From the NCBI GenBank assembly GCA_003166335.1, contig PMWA01000101.1, positions 1-12,586 of the forward strand: a stretch of DNA of 12,586 nt, written 5' to 3'. The translations under genes and the position numbers were made by a program. This document shows positions 2,826 to 12,159 of this stretch, one piece after another (positions within the stretch are counted from its first letter, which is position 1; the number at the start of each line of letters is the position of its first letter). The stretch comes from Methanobacterium sp. Its GTDB lineage: Archaea; Methanobacteriota; Methanobacteria; Methanobacteriales; Methanobacteriaceae. The notes beneath the pieces were generated by a model. It was not told the origin of the DNA, did not search any database, and saw nothing but the letters and a program-made list of their open reading frames with translations.

Positions 2826-3254
2826 ATGAATTCTCAAAAAGTTAAAGTGAGTGTTTTAATTATTTGCTACCACAACTCCGCCAGATCTCAAATGGCTGAA
2901 GGACTTCTAAAAACATTATATGGTGAATATTATGATGTTTACAGTGCAGGAAGTGATCCTACCATTGTAAATCCTTATGCAATAAAAGTCCTAGCAGAAT
3001 TGGATATTAATATATCAAATAATCGATCCAAAAGTCTCAAAGAATTTGAGGACTTAGAATTTGATTACGTGGTAACCGTATGTGGAGGTGTTGAAGCAGC
3101 AGCATGCCCATATTTCCCGGGAGGAAAAAAATATCTCCACGAATCATTTGAAGACCCCGCAGCAGTTGATGGAACTGACCATGACAAAACGGAAGCATTC
3201 AGAAAAAGTAGAGATGAAATTAAAGAATGGTTAACAAAAACATTTAAAGCTTAA
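2826..3254 (+). CDS. arsC: Arsenate reductase, thioredoxin-coupled LMW-PTP fold
   Basis: P-loop CX5R 'ICYHNSARSQMAEG', 'YSAGS', distal Cys pair 'TVCGGVEAAACPYFPG', and 'FEDP...FRKSRDEI'. GGAG SD at 2814-2817. Confidence 0.85.
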   Translation: MNSQKVKVSVLIICYHNSARSQMAEGLLKTLYGEYYDVYSAGSDPTIVNPYAIKVLAELDINISNNRSKSLKEFEDLEFDYVVTVCGGVEAAACPYFPGGKKYLHESFEDPAAVDGTDHDKTEAFRKSRDEIKEWLTKTFKA

Positions 3255-3641: not shown

Positions 3642-4553
3642 ATGTATGAAACACTGACATACACAGGGGGAGTTCACAAGCACGAGGAAATGATCGAGTT
3701 AATAGAAGATCTAGGCGGATTTGTGCTTCAAGAAAATATTAGTCAAATGGATCTGGTTTTAACCCTCGCCGTTCCCATGGAAGACGTTGAAAAGGTGGAG
3801 GAAAAAGCAAAACAACTTTTAGGAAAAGTTAAAATAGCCCCTATGGCCGGAACCGAAATAGCAATAGTTTCACCCACTCTAGCCAGACAACACCTTCCCC
3901 ATTCAGCATGTGACATATCTGAATATCTGCGCCGATACGGAACCAAAGATAATATGATTGGTCTACAACGCGGAGCAGGAAAAGGCATATCCCGGATTTC
4001 AGAAGATGAGAAGAAGCTTATAGAAGAACATGACTTAGCAGTTTTTGCGTTAGGAAGCTTCAGAGAGTGCATATTAAACAAAACCCATCTATTTGAAGAT
4101 ATAGAAATCCCAGTAATTGTAACAGGAGCACCACAAATAAAATTGGAAGATATACCCGGTGCAGATGCCTATGTAGGAGGACTAGGTAGAATACCACGCA
4201 GACTAAAAAGAGGAGAAAATATAAGAGCACTTAAAGAATTAGCGGAGGTGGCGGAAGAAATTCTAGACCAGAAAAGAGTGGAAATGTCTGATGATCCTCC
4301 ACTTGTACCGTCTATTCTAGTTAAAACAGAGATAGAAAATCAGGTGCCAGCTATAAAACAGGTTTACTCACCAGCACCCGTAGTAAGCCAGTTAGATGGA
4401 GTAAGAGTTAAACTCAACTACGACCAGTATCATGATGAAATAGCAGATGTAGAAGTTAATAATTACAAATTAATTGACATCTCAGAAATCCGGAAATCCA
4501 TGATGTACGATTATACATTAGTCAAGCTGCTGCCGGAAACTTCTATAATCTAA
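3642..4553 (+). CDS. Methanogenesis marker protein 7 (Mmp7, McrC-related)
   Basis: 303 aa with '[16 protein letters not shown]...IEDLGG', '[29 protein letters not shown]' and '[16 protein letters not shown]'. SD GAGGT at 3632-3636. Confidence 0.9.
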
Positions 4554-4641: not shown

Positions 4642-5724
4642 TTGAAAAAAATAATTCAATTCATACTAAGTATTTTTCTATTTTTTTGGGGGTTTTTAGT
4701 CCTTAATTATGTTGTTTTATATGGTGTAAGTACCTTTTTTAATTTACCCAGAACAAGCACGCTATATATTTTAATGCTTATTGTTACTTTATTTTATCCT
4801 ATTTCATCTTCTCTAGAGAGGATTTTTTCAAACCTTCCATCTAGAATCTTTTATTTCATTTCTGCTGCATGGGTTGGAATATCCATTTATATAGTTATTT
4901 CATTGGCTTTATATGTAATATTTATCTTTTCAATCAGTCTTTTAATAAAAATACCCACCTTAATCATAGGAGAGCTATTTATAATCATAGCAGTTTTAGT
5001 AAGCATATATGCAATAATTAATGCCACTCGATTAGAAGTTAAAGAAATCAATGTTCATTTGGATGGTCTTAAAAATAATATAAGGGCGGTTCAACTCAGT
5101 GATGTTCATATAGGTCCCATAAGAAATGTTGGATTTATTAAAAGAATAGTAAATAAAACCAATGAACTAAATCCTGACATAATTTTTATCACCGGCGATC
5201 TTTTTGATGGCACATCAAAACTTCATAAAGAAATTCCAAAGGCTTTAAATGAGTTCAAAGCTCCAATATTATTTGTAACGGGGAATCATGACACATATCA
5301 AGATTTAAATGAAATATCTAAAATATTGGCTAAAACCAGAGTGAAAACACTAACTAATGAATTATTCCACTTCAAAGACTTGCAAATAATAGGGGTAGAT
5401 TACTCTCTAGAGAAAAGATATTTAGAAAACGTACTCCAAAACATTGAATACGAAAGAAATAAACCCCTAATTCTAATGTATCACCTACCACGGGAATTTG
5501 AAGCTGCTAAAAATGCGGGAATTCAACTACAACTTTCAGGCCACACCCACAACGGTCAATTCTTCCCCATCAACTATATTGTAAAAATGATTTTTCCCCA
5601 CATCAAAGGTCTTTATGAGTATCAAGGAGCACAACTCTACGTATCCCAGGGAACAGGTACCTGGGGCCCTCCTATGAGGCTTGGCTCAAGATGTGAGATT
5701 ACGTTGATTAAAATAAAAAAATAA
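4642..5724 (+). CDS. Membrane-anchored calcineurin-like metallophosphoesterase (YkuE/YaeI-like)
   Basis: About four hydrophobic N-terminal segments, then all five metal motifs: SDVH, TGDLFD, GNHD, MYHLP, SGHTHNGQ. C-terminal 'YVSQGTGTWGPPMRLG'. TTG start after GGGG (4628-4631). Confidence 0.9.
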   Translation: MKKIIQFILSIFLFFWGFLVLNYVVLYGVSTFFNLPRTSTLYILMLIVTLFYPISSSLERIFSNLPSRIFYFISAAWVGISIYIVISLALYVIFIFSISLLIKIPTLIIGELFIIIAVLVSIYAIINATRLEVKEINVHLDGLKNNIRAVQLSDVHIGPIRNVGFIKRIVNKTNELNPDIIFITGDLFDGTSKLHKEIPKALNEFKAPILFVTGNHDTYQDLNEISKILAKTRVKTLTNELFHFKDLQIIGVDYSLEKRYLENVLQNIEYERNKPLILMYHLPREFEAAKNAGIQLQLSGHTHNGQFFPINYIVKMIFPHIKGLYEYQGAQLYVSQGTGTWGPPMRLGSRCEITLIKIKK

Positions 5725-5742: not shown

Positions 5743-6993
5743 TTATTTTTTCCTAACCCCAAAGAAGTTTATAGCTTCTATTAAATCCTGAAAAGCATAT
5801 AATTCAGCTTTAAGCACATCTTTCCCGCTAAGAGTGCTGCTCATCTCACCATCTACAGAAAGTTTTTCAGGACCCCTAGCTACTATTCTTTCTACACCGT
5901 CACGGCTTAGGAGTTCTGTTGCTTTTTTATCATGTACTAAAGCACGTCCTGGAATTAAAACTGTTTCTTTCAATTCTTTAAGATTTATTTCTTCCAGATC
6001 CTTTTGAGTTATTAAACAGGCAATATCTTTATCAGCGGTAACAACGTTTACCAATTCATCTGCCCCCATATCATGCATGATCTTTGTTATGAAGGGTGCT
6101 GCAATTTTGCTGGTTAGTATGGTGGCTTCTGATGTTACTTCAGATAAAATATCCAAATATTCCTTATTTTTTGTTTTAGAAAGGGCAAATGGAGCATCAT
6201 TTACAGGATCATAGAGTGGAGTACCTGTAACCCGGAAACTGAATTCTTTATTCACCTGCCGAACCAGATTTTCAAATTCTTCCAGAGAATGTGGATTTAA
6301 ACCATCGATAATTGGTTCATTACCCAATATAAGACCTTGATTTTCAAAATTAGCAAATCTCATAAGTATAAATGCTTCGACACCCCATTCTTCTAGATCA
6401 CTGCAGGTTTGGAATAATTTTTCTCCATCATTAACTCCGGGCAATATTACTGAAGCAGCATGGACTTCACAGTTTTCACTGAATATTTTAAGAGCTTTTA
6501 ACGATTCTTCCGGGTTTTTATCACCCATCCACTTTTTCCTAAGCAAAGCATCAGTTGAAAAAACAGTAAATGTTACTTCTTTAACCCCAAGTGAAATTAG
6601 ATCCTCAGCTATTCTTGCATCATCTATTCCTTTACCACTAGTGTAACCCAGATGAATAGGTAGATCTAATTGCTTAAATGCAGATGTAACTTCCAGTAAA
6701 TGTGGATAACAGCTTACATCTCCCCCTCCACTTATGTTAACTTTTAAATCATGGTCTCGGTATCCGCCGAGCATTAATGAATTTTGAACAGAGCTAACAA
6801 CCATGAATGGTGGAATAAATTCGCTTTTAATCTCCCTAATACCAGTTGTACAATGATCACATCCAACTCTACCGGGATTGCAGAATTTACATCCAAAAGG
6901 GTCTCCATTTTTAACTTTTAGAAAATAACAATATTTACAAAACCCTCTGCAGTTCTTGCCAGGTATACCACCTACATCTGCTATTATTTGCAT
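5743..6993 (-). CDS. mmp10: Methanogenesis marker 10: radical SAM, cobalamin-dependent methyl-coenzyme M reductase arginine C5-methyltransferase
   Basis: CX3CX2C 'CRGFCKYCYF', extra 4-Cys site 'CKFC...CDHC', 'SGGGDVSCYP', 'LGYTSGKG', 'DIACLIT', 'IPGRA'. Canonical divergent position next to mcrB. Confidence 0.95.
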   Translation of the reverse strand: MQIIADVGGIPGKNCRGFCKYCYFLKVKNGDPFGCKFCNPGRVGCDHCTTGIREIKSEFIPPFMVVSSVQNSLMLGGYRDHDLKVNISGGGDVSCYPHLLEVTSAFKQLDLPIHLGYTSGKGIDDARIAEDLISLGVKEVTFTVFSTDALLRKKWMGDKNPEESLKALKIFSENCEVHAASVILPGVNDGEKLFQTCSDLEEWGVEAFILMRFANFENQGLILGNEPIIDGLNPHSLEEFENLVRQVNKEFSFRVTGTPLYDPVNDAPFALSKTKNKEYLDILSEVTSEATILTSKIAAPFITKIMHDMGADELVNVVTADKDIACLITQKDLEEINLKELKETVLIPGRALVHDKKATELLSRDGVERIVARGPEKLSVDGEMSSTLSGKDVLKAELYAFQDLIEAINFFGVRKK

Positions 6994-7091
6994 AATATCT
7001 ACTTTTTAAACATAAAAAAAATAAGTATTTTTTGCTTCCGGGTATGCACCGAAAAAGTATGTAACAATTGAATTAATTTGAGGGATTATAC

Positions 7092-7106
7092 CTTATAAAT
7101 CTTTCT
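7092..7106 (-). promoter_or_regulatory. Putative mmp10 promoter (BRE + TATA)
   Basis: Minus strand reads AGAAAGA-TTTATAAG, matching the archaeal BRE/TATA consensus. Predicted start ~7065-7070. Confidence 0.55.
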
Positions 7107-7118
7107 AAATGAATCAAG

Positions 7119-7133
7119 AAGAAAGTTTAATAT
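7119..7133 (+). promoter_or_regulatory. Putative mcr operon promoter (BRE + TATA)
   Basis: AAGAAAG followed by TTTAATAT (7126-7133). The predicted start ~7154-7158 coincides with the 5' edge of the folded leader. Confidence 0.6.
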
Positions 7134-7154
7134 CATATAAACCAGTAAAGTTAG

Positions 7155-7254
7155 ATTCGTATATCAAATATTGTATCAGTTGTGATCCATCCCAACAAAT
7201 AAATCAGAGATTACTGATTCATATGATACATTTAGAAAATTGATGTACAAGAAT
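7155..7254 (+). ncRNA. Structured 5' leader of mcrB (three-way junction, candidate cis-regulatory RNA)
   Basis: Nested helices: ATTC/GAAT (7155-7158/7251-7254); GTATATCAA/TTGATGTAC (7159-7167/7240-7248, one G-U); TGTATCA/TGATACA (7172-7178/7224-7230); GTTG/CAAC (7179-7182/7193-7196); AATCAG/CTGATT (7202-7207/7214-7219). Confidence 0.6.
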
Positions 7255-7271
7255 ATTGTAGGAGGGACAAA

Positions 7272-8603
7272 ATGGCAAAGTTTGAAGATAAGATCGACTT
7301 GTACGACGACAAAGGAAAACTCGTTGAAGCACAAGTACCAATCGAAGCATTAAGTCCGTTAAGAAACCCAGCAATTAAAGGAATCATTCAGGGTATCAAA
7401 AGGACCGTAGCTCTAAACTTAGAAGGTACACAGAAAGCCTTAATGACCGGAAAAGTCGGTGGACCAGCAAATAAAATAATGGGAAGAGAAATCGACATAG
7501 ACATCGTCGGAAATGCAGAAGCCATTGCAGAAAAAGCAAAAGCAATGATTCAAGTTGAAGATGGTGATGATACAAATGTTGAGTTGTTAGCCGGTGGAAA
7601 AAGAGTATTAGTACAGTTACCACAAGCTAGATTTGAAGCAGCAGCCGAATACTCAGCAACACCACTCGTTACAGCTTCAGCATTCATCCAAGCAATAATT
7701 GATGTTTGTGGTGTAAGCATGTACGATGCAAATATGGTGAAAGCAGCTATTCTAGGTAGATACCCACAATCAGTTGAATACCTGGGTGGAAACGTAGCTA
7801 CTATGCTTGACCTGCCTCAGAAATTAGAAGGTCCAGGTTATGCACTAAGAAACATCATGGTAAACCACGTAGTTGCAGCAACTCTTAAAAACACCATGCA
7901 AACAACTGCTCTATCCAGCATATTAGAACAATCAGCAATGTTTGAAATGGGAGACGCAGTCGGAGCATTTGAAAGAATGCACCTTTTAGGACTTGCATAT
8001 CAGGGAATGAACGCTGATAACATGGTATTCGATCTGGTAAAAGAAAACGGTAAAACAGGTACAGTAGGATCCGTTATAGCAGATACAGTAGACAAAGCAA
8101 AAGCAGATGGCGTAATAGGTGTAGAAAAAGACTTGCACGGTTTCAGCGTCTACGGAACCGACGACATGGCAAAATGGAATGCTTATGCAGCAGCAGGATT
8201 GCAAGCAGCTACAATGGTTAACCAAGGTGCTGCCAGAGCTGCACAAGGTGTATCATCCACTATTCTATACTACAACGACATACTTGAATTCGAAACTGGC
8301 TTACCAAGCGTTGATTTTGGTAGAGCTGAAGGTGTAGCAGTAGGATTTTCCTTCTTCAGTCACTCCATATACGGTGGTGGAGGACCAGGTATTTTCAACG
8401 GAAATCACATTGTTACTCGACACAGTAAAGGATTCGCTATACCACCAGTAGCAGCAGCCATGTCTTTAGATGCCGGTACACAAATGTTCTCCCCAGAAGC
8501 AACCTCCGGATTAATAAAAGAAGTGTTCAGCAAAGTTGATGCATTCAGAGAACCACTAAAATATGTGAATGAAGCAGCTGCTGAAATAAAAAACCAAGTC
8601 TAA
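7272..8603 (+). CDS. mcrB: Methyl-coenzyme M reductase beta subunit
   Basis: 443 aa with '[13 protein letters not shown]', 'GRYPQ', '[14 protein letters not shown]' and '[30 protein letters not shown]'. SD GGAGG at 7261-7265. Confidence 0.99.
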
Positions 8604-8637
8604 AAAAATAAATCCAAACTTGGGGGTAAATCAGTAA

Positions 8638-9075
8638 ATGGACATCGAAATTTTTCCACACAGATTATTAAGCGCTGATACCACTGAAAGATTGTTAAAC
8701 GATCTTGAGGGGATTGAAGGCATTAAAAGAATAGTTATTCAAGGACAAAGACTTCCTCCTAAAGAAATAAACGAAAATCACAGAACTATCATCCTTAAAG
8801 GTGAAGAAATAGATTTACAGGTTCAAACGGGCCGTATTTTAATGGACATAGAAGACGAGGAAATCATAGAGGATATAAGAACTATCTGTGAAGATCATCT
8901 GCCATTTGGATTCAACATACATCTTGGAACCTTTATCAGAAAGCAGAAAACCGTTACAGATAACATAAAATACGGAGAAGCCTTAAAACAAATACCAGAG
9001 GAAATGGTCGGTTTAACTGATCAAAACGCTCAACTCAGTGAAAGAGCCACCATAATCAAAAGAGAAAAACAATAA
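8638..9075 (+). CDS. mcrD: MCR operon protein D
   Basis: 145 aa with '[21 protein letters not shown]', 'IQGQRLP' and '[10 protein letters not shown]'. Follows mcrB. Confidence 0.97.
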
Positions 9076-9674
9076 TGATTGGTAAAACCACACATGTTGT
9101 AGACTGCAGAGAAGCAATGGGAATGGGTGAAGGTGGAGGAATAGCCCAGAGAGGAACTTTTGCAGAGTGTGGAAATGATGTACTGGCTATTGCCATGTCT
9201 CCCGGAAGAAGGCATATAACTAAACCAGTTTGCGAAATAACATTTGCCTTGCGGGAAGCTAATATACTAACCAGCACTTTAGTATTAAATGCAGGGGCTG
9301 GAGTTCCACATGATGCTCCAACAGCAGGATCCGGCAGCCTTTTTGGACTCACTCCTACGGAGATTGAGCAAATTAAAAGGTTCCGTCTTGTAGTAATGCA
9401 TCTTGGAGGAGTAAGGCATCATATCATATACAAGGCTCGTTTGATTTTACGTAAAGTTAAAAGACCATGTATTGTTATATGCGAGTACCCCGTTGACTTT
9501 GAAGATTTCGCTAAGATCGGTGTCAAAACTAAAGCTGTAATGCCCGAAGAACCTAAAACTAAAGGTGAAATCGTGGATATTATAAGTGGAGTAATTAGAG
9601 GAGAAACAGCTCCCCAAGAAAAGTTGGATGAAATAATAAGAAAGGTAAGATTAGCATTAGGAGGTGCATTATAA
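9075..9674 (+). CDS. mcrC: MCR operon protein C
   Basis: 199 aa with '[21 protein letters not shown]', '[16 protein letters not shown]' and '[13 protein letters not shown]'. TAATG overlap with the mcrD stop. Confidence 0.97.
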
Positions 9675-10424
9675 ATGGCACAATTTTATCCAGGAACAAG
9701 TAAGGTTGCAGAAAACCGAAGAAAATTCATGAACCCAGATATAGAACTCGAAAAATTAAGGGAGATATCTGATGAAGATGTTGTACAGATATTAGGTCAC
9801 AGAGCTCCCGGAGAAGAATATCCAAGTGTACATCCACCACTAGAAGAGTTGGATGAACCAGATGATGCAATAAGGGACATGGTGGAACCACTCGATGGTG
9901 CAAAAGCAGGTGATAGGGTAAGATACATCCAATTCACTGACTCAATGTACTTCGCCCCAGCACACCCATTCGTAAGATCCCGATCATATCTACACAGATT
10001 CAGAGGAGCAGATGCAGGTACTTTATCAGGAAGACAAATCATCGAAACCCGAGAAAGAGATCTAGAAAAATACGCTAAAGAATTATTAGAAACAGAATTC
10101 TTCGACCCAGCCCGAACCGGTATAAGAGGTAAAACAGTTCACGGACACGCTTTAAGACTAGATGAAGATGGTATGATGTTCGACATGTTACGAAGACAGT
10201 TGTTCGACAAATCTACTGGAATGGTTAGTTCAGTTAAAAACCAGATTGGTGACGAATTAGACGAGCCAGTATTATTAGGAGAACCATTAGAAGAATCAGT
10301 CCTCAAAGAAAAAACAACTATCTACAGAAAAGATGGTGAAGCATACCGAGACGACAAAGACGCAGTAGAAGTACTCCAAAGAATCCACGTATTAAGATCA
10401 ATGGGCGGGTACAATCCTGAATAA
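9675..10424 (+). CDS. mcrG: Methyl-coenzyme M reductase gamma subunit
   Basis: 249 aa with 'MAQFYPG', 'GDRVRYIQFTDSMY', 'GTLSGRQIIETRERDLE' and 'VHGHALRLDEDGMMFD'. SD GGAGGTG at 9660-9666. Confidence 0.99.
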   Translation: MAQFYPGTSKVAENRRKFMNPDIELEKLREISDEDVVQILGHRAPGEEYPSVHPPLEELDEPDDAIRDMVEPLDGAKAGDRVRYIQFTDSMYFAPAHPFVRSRSYLHRFRGADAGTLSGRQIIETRERDLEKYAKELLETEFFDPARTGIRGKTVHGHALRLDEDGMMFDMLRRQLFDKSTGMVSSVKNQIGDELDEPVLLGEPLEESVLKEKTTIYRKDGEAYRDDKDAVEVLQRIHVLRSMGGYNPE

Positions 10425-10439
10425 GCAGGAGGTGAAAAT

Positions 10440-12092
<1,653 letters not shown>

Positions 12093-12093
12093 G

Positions 12094-12130
12094 TAGGTGT
12101 TAAATGTAAACACCTATTTTTTTTTATTTT
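12094..12130 (+). terminator. mcr operon terminator (hairpin + oligo-T)
   Basis: Perfect 8-bp stem TAGGTGTT/AACACCTA (12094-12101/12109-12116) with a 7-nt loop, followed by T9-A-T4, immediately after the mcrA stop. Confidence 0.85.
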
Positions 12131-12159
12131 ATTAAAAAATAATATGGAGGAAAAATAAC

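Follow-up and report, generated by a model that had tools for sequence, protein, structure and literature searches.

The locus examined here raises the question of whether the leader of a very abundant methanogen mRNA holds an RNA structure that is maintained by selection, and of what such a structure might do for the operon behind it. Methyl-coenzyme M reductase (MCR) catalyses the step that releases methane, and its transcript ranks among the most abundant mRNAs of methanogens. To our knowledge, conserved and covarying cis-acting structures in mRNAs have rarely been documented in Archaea. The control of MCR I versus MCR II in Methanobacteriales is described as still unexplained in the accessible part of a preprint (10.64898/2026.05.29.728764). 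The window, by which we mean the whole stretch of DNA that was analysed (12,586 nt of a Methanobacterium sp., contig PMWA01000101.1), contains the mcrBDCGA operon. For its leader, an original prediction made from the letters alone had drawn nested helices around a three-way junction, and had offered an mRNA stabiliser, a protein-binding or processing element and a riboswitch-like sensor as possible functions.

The leader element sits in the 278-nt spacer between mmp10 and mcrB (Table 1), and the genome gave one mcrB match. The mmp10 gene had tblastn matches in 102 of 128 loci, including loci of genera g8, g9 and g10. Where the flanking sequence is long enough, it is mostly found next to mcrB, on the upstream side and divergent from it; in several Methanobrevibacter loci it lies farther off or in a different orientation. 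On the other side of the operon, mtrE runs from 12160 on, 67 nt (12093-12159) after the mcrA stop, and the two operons, mcr and mtr, are neighbours on a common strand. Farther upstream, methanogenesis marker 7 (TIGR03274, 489.6 bits), a metallophosphoesterase and an ArsC-like protein were found at 3642-4553, 4642-5724 and 2826-3254, respectively; the last belongs to a low-molecular-weight phosphatase family and scored under the family cut-off.

Table 1. Coordinates of the mcr leader, its promoters and the neighbouring genes in the window.
Feature	Position	Strand	Basis
mmp10, McrA arginine methyltransferase, divergent from mcr	5743..6993	-	TIGR03278, 643.6 bits vs cut-off 350
Distal TATA-like box and purine-rich BRE-like hexamer (TTATAAATCTTTC, 7093-7105)	7093..7106	-	fixed at -66 to -54 across genera
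Predicted BRE (AGAAAG, 7120-7125) and TATA box (TTTAATAT, 7126-7133), mcr promoter	7120..7133	+	alignment
Covariance-model match, extent	7156..7251	+	51.6 bits, E 3e-7
Predicted transcription start site (TSS)	7159 (or up to ~5 nt upstream)	+	25 nt after TATA end; pyrimidine-G step
P1 5' arm (GUAUAUCAA)	7159..7167	+	MFE fold, comparative alignments
P1/P2 internal loop, 5' side (AUAU; DNA ATAT)	7168..7171	+	MFE fold
P2 5' arm	7172..7178	+	MFE fold, alignments
P3 hairpin	7179..7196	+	MFE fold, covariance-model alignment
P4 hairpin	7202..7219	+	MFE fold, covariance-model alignment
P2 3' arm	7224..7230	+	MFE fold, alignments
P1/P2 internal loop, 3' side, purine-rich (UUUAGAAAA)	7231..7239	+	MFE fold
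P1 3' arm (UUGAUGUAC)	7240..7248	+	MFE fold, comparative alignments
Shine-Dalgarno (SD) GGAGGG	7261..7266	+	sequence; invariant in 52 aligned leaders
mcrBDCGA operon	7272-12092	+	Pfam; NCBIfam
mcrB, first gene of mcrBDCGA	7272..8603	+	Pfam MCR_beta_N and MCR_beta
McrC	9075-9674	+	NCBIfam

Folding of 7155-7254 with RNAfold returned a minimum free energy (MFE) structure equal to the earlier drawing, with helices P1, P2, P3 and P4 and a three-way junction whose linkers are 0 nt, AAATA and CATA, and the identical MFE structure was obtained when 7159 to 7310 was folded. P1 comprises 9 bp, including the U-G pair 7162/7245, and P2 comprises 7 bp; in the internal loop between them ATAT faces TTTAGAAAA, and two A columns on the 3' side are 91-94% conserved among 53 Methanobacterium-type leaders. 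P3 pairs 7179-7182 with 7193-7196 and 7184-7185 with 7190-7191, and P4 pairs 7202-7207 with 7214-7219. These helices and linkers stood as drawn, but the outer 4-bp helix (7155-7158 with 7251-7254) was rejected: it pairs completely in only 30 of 89 relatives, and no compensatory changes were seen in it. A GATC in or beside the P3 loop (7184-7187 in the window) is conserved in the own genus (L001-L016) and not in other clades.

The expected stability relative to shuffled sequences was seen in part. The exact 100 nt (7155-7254) reached -19.7 kcal/mol and z -2.44 on coordinates picked to suit the fold, with 5 of 200 shuffles equally good, but wider context weakened the value to z -0.18 for 7120-7290 and z -0.46 for 7159-7310. 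The antisense strand gave z -1.70. In the own genome, which is AT-rich, 127 P1-like stems (at least 8 bp, G-U allowed, partner 40-160 nt away) were matched at 1527 GTATAYY sites; outside the mcr leader these were chance-type stems, and none carried the mcr arms. Taken by itself, the single sequence is not beyond chance, and the support for the fold is comparative.

We collected mcrB upstream regions from 30 relatives' genomes, five further genera and 80 contig loci. Of 98 distinct regions, drawn from four GTDB families of Methanobacteriales, 95 kept P1 as a stem of 6-14 bp. This stem opens with GTATA, some 91-141 nt ahead of the start codon (287 nt in a single case), and its end lies 23-36 nt ahead of that codon. 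The three exceptions were a Methanothermus-like relative, the sole representative of genus g10 (L030), a contig cut 89 nt upstream (L064) and a region containing Ns (L073). After de-duplication 89 leaders remained, with 29 distinct combinations of P1 arms. Since these rows had been chosen for at least 6 pairs, positions 1-6 are paired by construction, and the informative part is the kind of variation. Position 6 is C-G, U-G or U-A, with a T-A to C-G change, position 7 is C-G or U-A, with a C-G to T-A change, and positions 1, 2 and 4 alternate between Watson-Crick and G-U pairs. The 5' arm is near-invariant (GUAUAYYAA), with GUAUA in 89 of 89 leaders.

Alignments that were blind to structure recovered the basal part of the fold. 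With RNAalifold on MAFFT alignments, P1 was found among 52 leaders, with seven pairs free of any broken cell, and P1 plus P2 among 29 leaders. In the latter, 98.2% of cells of the 15 pairs were paired, as against 20-46% in slid controls with the partner moved by 1-3 columns, and 6 of the 15 pairs showed double changes compared with 0.5 in shuffled alignments (0 of 500 shuffles reached this), a significance which such shuffles overstate for related sequences. Covariance models were then used because MAFFT aligns P3 and P4 inconsistently. A first model, built from 15 close sequences with the full structure and searched against 91 sources, gave 53 full-length matches, one per locus and all on the mcrB strand. 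In the alignment fitted to it, 92.8% of 1398 cells were paired (79.6% shuffled), both sides had changed in 21 of 29 pairs, and 163 double-change cells were counted against 38.5 shuffled; none of 500 shuffles matched any of the five observed measures, a test that the relatedness of the sequences inflates here too, and slid controls paired at 29-48%. Double changes were found in 5 of 5 pairs of P3 (helix 3) and in 9 of 9 pairs of P4 (helices 4 and 5), support that rests on the model-fitted alignment, which itself favours structure.

In addition, the interior between the P1 arms was folded alone in each of the 89 leaders, which involves no alignment. The mean z was -2.72 (median -2.51); 99% of the leaders had a negative value, and 70% had a value under -2. 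The unconstrained MFE structure contained exactly two hairpins in 77 of the 89. The layout of these hairpins differs between genera. Of the 53 Methanobacterium-type leaders, 41 had both enclosed by P2 and 2 had two adjacent hairpins directly inside P1; among the 36 leaders from other genera, the corresponding numbers were 1 and 33. The helices are under selection as structure. The original claim of a conserved and covarying RNA in the mcrB leader was thus borne out by both the structure-blind and the model-fitted alignments, and the element occurs once per genome.

The inverted repeat might instead act as DNA, either as half-sites of a transcription-factor operator or as a cruciform. GTATAC, itself palindromic, does occur in some genera, and the arms flank a promoter-proximal region, but the arms in the window are not self-palindromic and the interior covaries as well. 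The kind of mismatch also bears on this point. Over all helices of the 53 Methanobacterium-type leaders, 152 G-U cells were found against 25 A-C cells, and P1 showed 72 against 0; at P1 positions 1-7 of the 89 leaders there were 95 G-U and one C-A. Such an excess indicates pairing in sense-strand RNA, since neither a DNA palindrome nor an antisense RNA predicts it, and an operator made of inverted repeats should carry symmetric mismatches with no excess of G-T. A role at the DNA level is therefore hardly credible, and the G-U pair 7162/7245, once proposed as a sign of RNA, generalises to the relatives.

A broader covariance model built from the 53 leaders was used to examine distribution. In the own genome its sole match was the element itself, with nothing more up to E 10. 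Among 151 sampled genomes of the order, 48 had one match each, in six genera: g1 (10 of 10), g12 (3 of 4), g14 (15 of 17), g16 (6 of 9), g18 (12 of 12) and g26 (1 of 1). No match was obtained with this model in g5 (0 of 35), g3 (0 of 13), g8 (0 of 9) or g9 (0 of 5), whose leaders share P1 and have different interiors. The full fold thus spans at least six GTDB genera, and the basal stem spans the whole order. All 16 matches whose neighbourhood was checked, out of the 48, lay about 20 nt upstream of an MCR-I-type mcrB, and none of the 16 was at a second, mrt-like copy; the leaders of these copies lack the P1 stem. Where present, the element is found once in a genome and goes with MCR-I-type mcrB. 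It also lies outside known RNA families, as the original prediction had supposed: Rfam 15 contained no matching family, with no match at the gathering threshold in the window or in five relatives' loci, and a search of 6900-7400 with E up to 10 gave three matches, which scored 14-16 bits where the gathering scores are 44-50.

Where the transcript begins was judged from promoter geometry. In an ungapped alignment of the 89 leaders, anchored on and counted from the first G of P1, the BRE/TATA block occupies -39 to -26, and P1 starts at a pyrimidine-G step 26 to 33 nt past this conserved block. All 89 leaders have a pyrimidine at -1 (C in 76, T in 13) and G at +1. According to the accessible part of one study on Methanosarcina (PMC11409679), transcription there starts some 23 bp past the TATA box, where a purine follows a pyrimidine. 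The BRE/TATA spacing together with the pyrimidine-G step predicts that P1 forms the 5' terminus of the mRNA, and from this geometry we infer that the mcr TSS is the first G of P1 or lies within about 5 nt upstream of it.

A second promoter-like block lies farther upstream. On the minus strand, 7093..7106 reads as a purine-rich hexamer followed by a TATA-like box, and because mmp10 is divergent upstream, this block is probably the mmp10 promoter. Across genera, the part of the window from 7093 to 7133 contains two AGAAAG-plus-TATA modules that face apart with 13 bp between them and align without gaps. To judge by its sequence, the arrangement looks like a compact divergent promoter pair, serving mmp10 on the minus strand and mcr on the plus strand.

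Contigs from RNA libraries (assembled peat metatranscriptomes) join mcrB to its leader as far as 7172, and their leader part covers P2, P3, P4 and the 3' arm of P1. On the mcr side they start at 7172, 7181, 7190, 7202 (twice) and 7233, and two of the ends carry adapter letters. In these assemblies 7034-7171 had no RNA contig of high depth; one contig of low depth in run X6 extends over 6700-7357 and may be DNA. A contig of run X11 matches mcrB from 7237 on, and upstream of that point it carries the leader of a related species, in the form known from L005 or L007. That sample thus contains several related strains whose leader interiors differ, and since the divergence falls within the leader, the ends of RNA contigs may be branch points between strains; they are uninformative on the TSS and on transcription of the P1 5' arm.

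Downstream of the fold, the SD GGAGGG lies 12 nt past P1 and 5 nt ahead of the ATG. In 84 leaders its predicted mean unpaired probability was 0.768 with the native domain compared with 0.487 with a shuffled domain, and the native SD was more open than the shuffle mean in 93% of these leaders; the window's own leader deviates, with 0.35 native and 0.44 shuffled. An anti-SD pairing seen in a wider fold (CCAUCCC at 7187-7193 with the SD) was dropped, being unconserved by inspection while the SD is open in most relatives. An upstream ORF starting at an ATG in the P1 3' arm was also rejected, as the ATG is missing where the arm reads UUGGUAUAC.

These observations bear first on the proposal that the leader senses a methanogenesis metabolite or a metal in the manner of a riboswitch. 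Its topology, a three-way junction, is like that of some aptamers, and its location, the leader of a key metabolic operon, would suit a sensor. As in the purine and TPP riboswitch aptamers, a basal stem closes a two-hairpin junction in a 5' leader. Unlike them, the mcr leader lacks a conserved core in junction or loops, an expression platform and an Rfam match, and its interiors vary by genus. Just two interior unpaired columns are at least 90% conserved among the 53 leaders, interior sequences and helix layout change between genera, and alternative pairing that hides the SD was not found, the SD being mostly unpaired in the 84 leaders. No terminator-like site was found in 6900-7400 by a scan that models bacterial terminators. 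Varying interior loops and junctions, genus-specific architectures and an open SD argue against an aptamer with an expression platform, and they fit a self-contained protective domain. We consider a sensor very improbable, and that part of the original prediction did not hold up. Of its other suggestions, an mRNA stabiliser and a protein-binding element both remain plausible.

We tentatively favour the first of these, a reading with nearly an even chance of being right: 7159-7248 would be a cis-acting 5'-terminal domain that protects and insulates the mcrBDCGA mRNA. If the start site is the first G of P1, or no more than about 5 nt away from it, the mRNA would begin base-paired. A paired end would hinder decay that depends on the 5' end, such as attack by the host's RNase J, and would thereby make a very abundant mRNA longer-lived. 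Moreover, the leader of about 90 nt would fold on itself, so that the strong SD 12 nt downstream would stay unpaired. The proposed mechanism involves no sensing of a ligand. A protein of the RNase J family is encoded in the genome (L127:373-1722; TIGR00649, 545.1 bits vs cut-off 400), and RNase J-like activity has been reported for all Archaea in the accessible part of a published study (PMC3997798).

The preference for a stabiliser and insulator is based on the self-contained fold, the RNase J, an analogy with the ompA and aprE leaders and the long leaders of other methanogenesis mRNAs. In bacteria, 5'-terminal stem-loops together with strong ribosome-binding sites stabilise mRNAs such as ompA of E. 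coli and aprE of B. subtilis. The mcr leader resembles them in having a stable structure at what is predicted to be the 5' terminus of a very abundant mRNA, with a strong ribosome-binding site downstream, in a host with a nuclease of the RNase J family. It differs from them in being archaeal, in forming a three-way junction of about 90 nt instead of a simple hairpin, and in a basal stem whose sequence is conserved across an order; its start and function are predicted. The long 5' UTRs of mtaA and mtaC in Methanosarcinales are reported to aid transcript stability (PMC5378194, accessible part). These are, like mcr, methanogenesis mRNAs with long leaders, but they come from another order and concern other genes, and the accessible part of the same paper describes no conserved covarying fold for them.

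Some observations stand against a protective and insulating domain. A single hairpin would be enough for the 5' end, and the order-wide two-hairpin junction and the P1 sequence suggest a further constraint. In addition, the Methanothermus-like relative and the mrt leaders lack the element and yet express MCR, and the window's own leader departs from the trend towards an open SD. The near-invariant P1 5' arm and the persistent two-hairpin junction are unexplained by stability, so a protein-binding role stays a serious rival, although we hold it to be unlikely on balance. The leader would then be the site of a dedicated RNA-binding protein that reads the P1 sequence and the junction shape and tunes the translation or decay of mcr, as in a balance of MCR I and MCR II that depends on H2 or growth phase. 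The constancy of GUAUA exceeds what pairing requires, the junction recurs in 77 of 89 leaders despite differing sequences, and the element is tied to MCR-I-type mcrB and missing from mrt leaders; the mechanisms of differential mcr/mrt regulation are said to await investigation in the accessible part of the preprint (10.64898/2026.05.29.728764). Against such a protein, no candidate is known, constraints on an initiator or on the initially transcribed sequence at the promoter could explain the conserved 5' arm just as well, and genomes with a single MCR, the own genome included, carry the element too.

A wider form of this idea is a lineage-wide regulatory RNA of MCR I, in which a factor, whether protein or small molecule, would read P1 and the junction and make the synthesis of MCR I depend on the supply of hydrogen or on cofactor and maturation status, with mmp10 sharing the control region. 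We regard it as distinctly unlikely. Alternatively, the leader could direct RNA processing or give rise to a stable small RNA, with an endonuclease cut at or near P1 that releases the structured domain or makes a new 5' end for the mRNA. The domain is compact, self-contained and stable, and widespread mRNA processing has been described in a methanogen (PMC5499594, accessible part). However, a bulge-helix-bulge was not evident by eye in P1/P2, and processing seems improbable. The same informal check by eye, extended over P1, the loop and P2, found neither K-turn nor bulge-helix-bulge motifs.

The mcr leader is best filed as a new RNA motif, whereas its general kind, a structured cis-acting 5' leader, is already known. 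No published description of the fold was found in the full-text literature, where subscription journals are thinly covered and an earlier mention of the inverted repeat is possible. If the leader does act as a stabiliser or insulator, PmcrB would owe some of its strength to it, and the engineering of methanogens would gain a useful part. Direct testing is possible because reporters and a PmcrB construct now exist in Methanothermobacter.

Two further variations were observed inside the basal stem. Oligo-T tracts are archaeal termination signals. The P4 loops of nine Methanobacterium-type leaders (L056, L059-L063, L069, L070 and L124) contain runs of 5-8 T, so premature termination in these leaders is conceivable; the P4 loop of the window has no such run. 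In a leader of genus g2 (L031:109-403), the P1 arms are kept around an AT-rich interior of 239 nt with about five predicted hairpins, which looks like an expansion within the basal stem.
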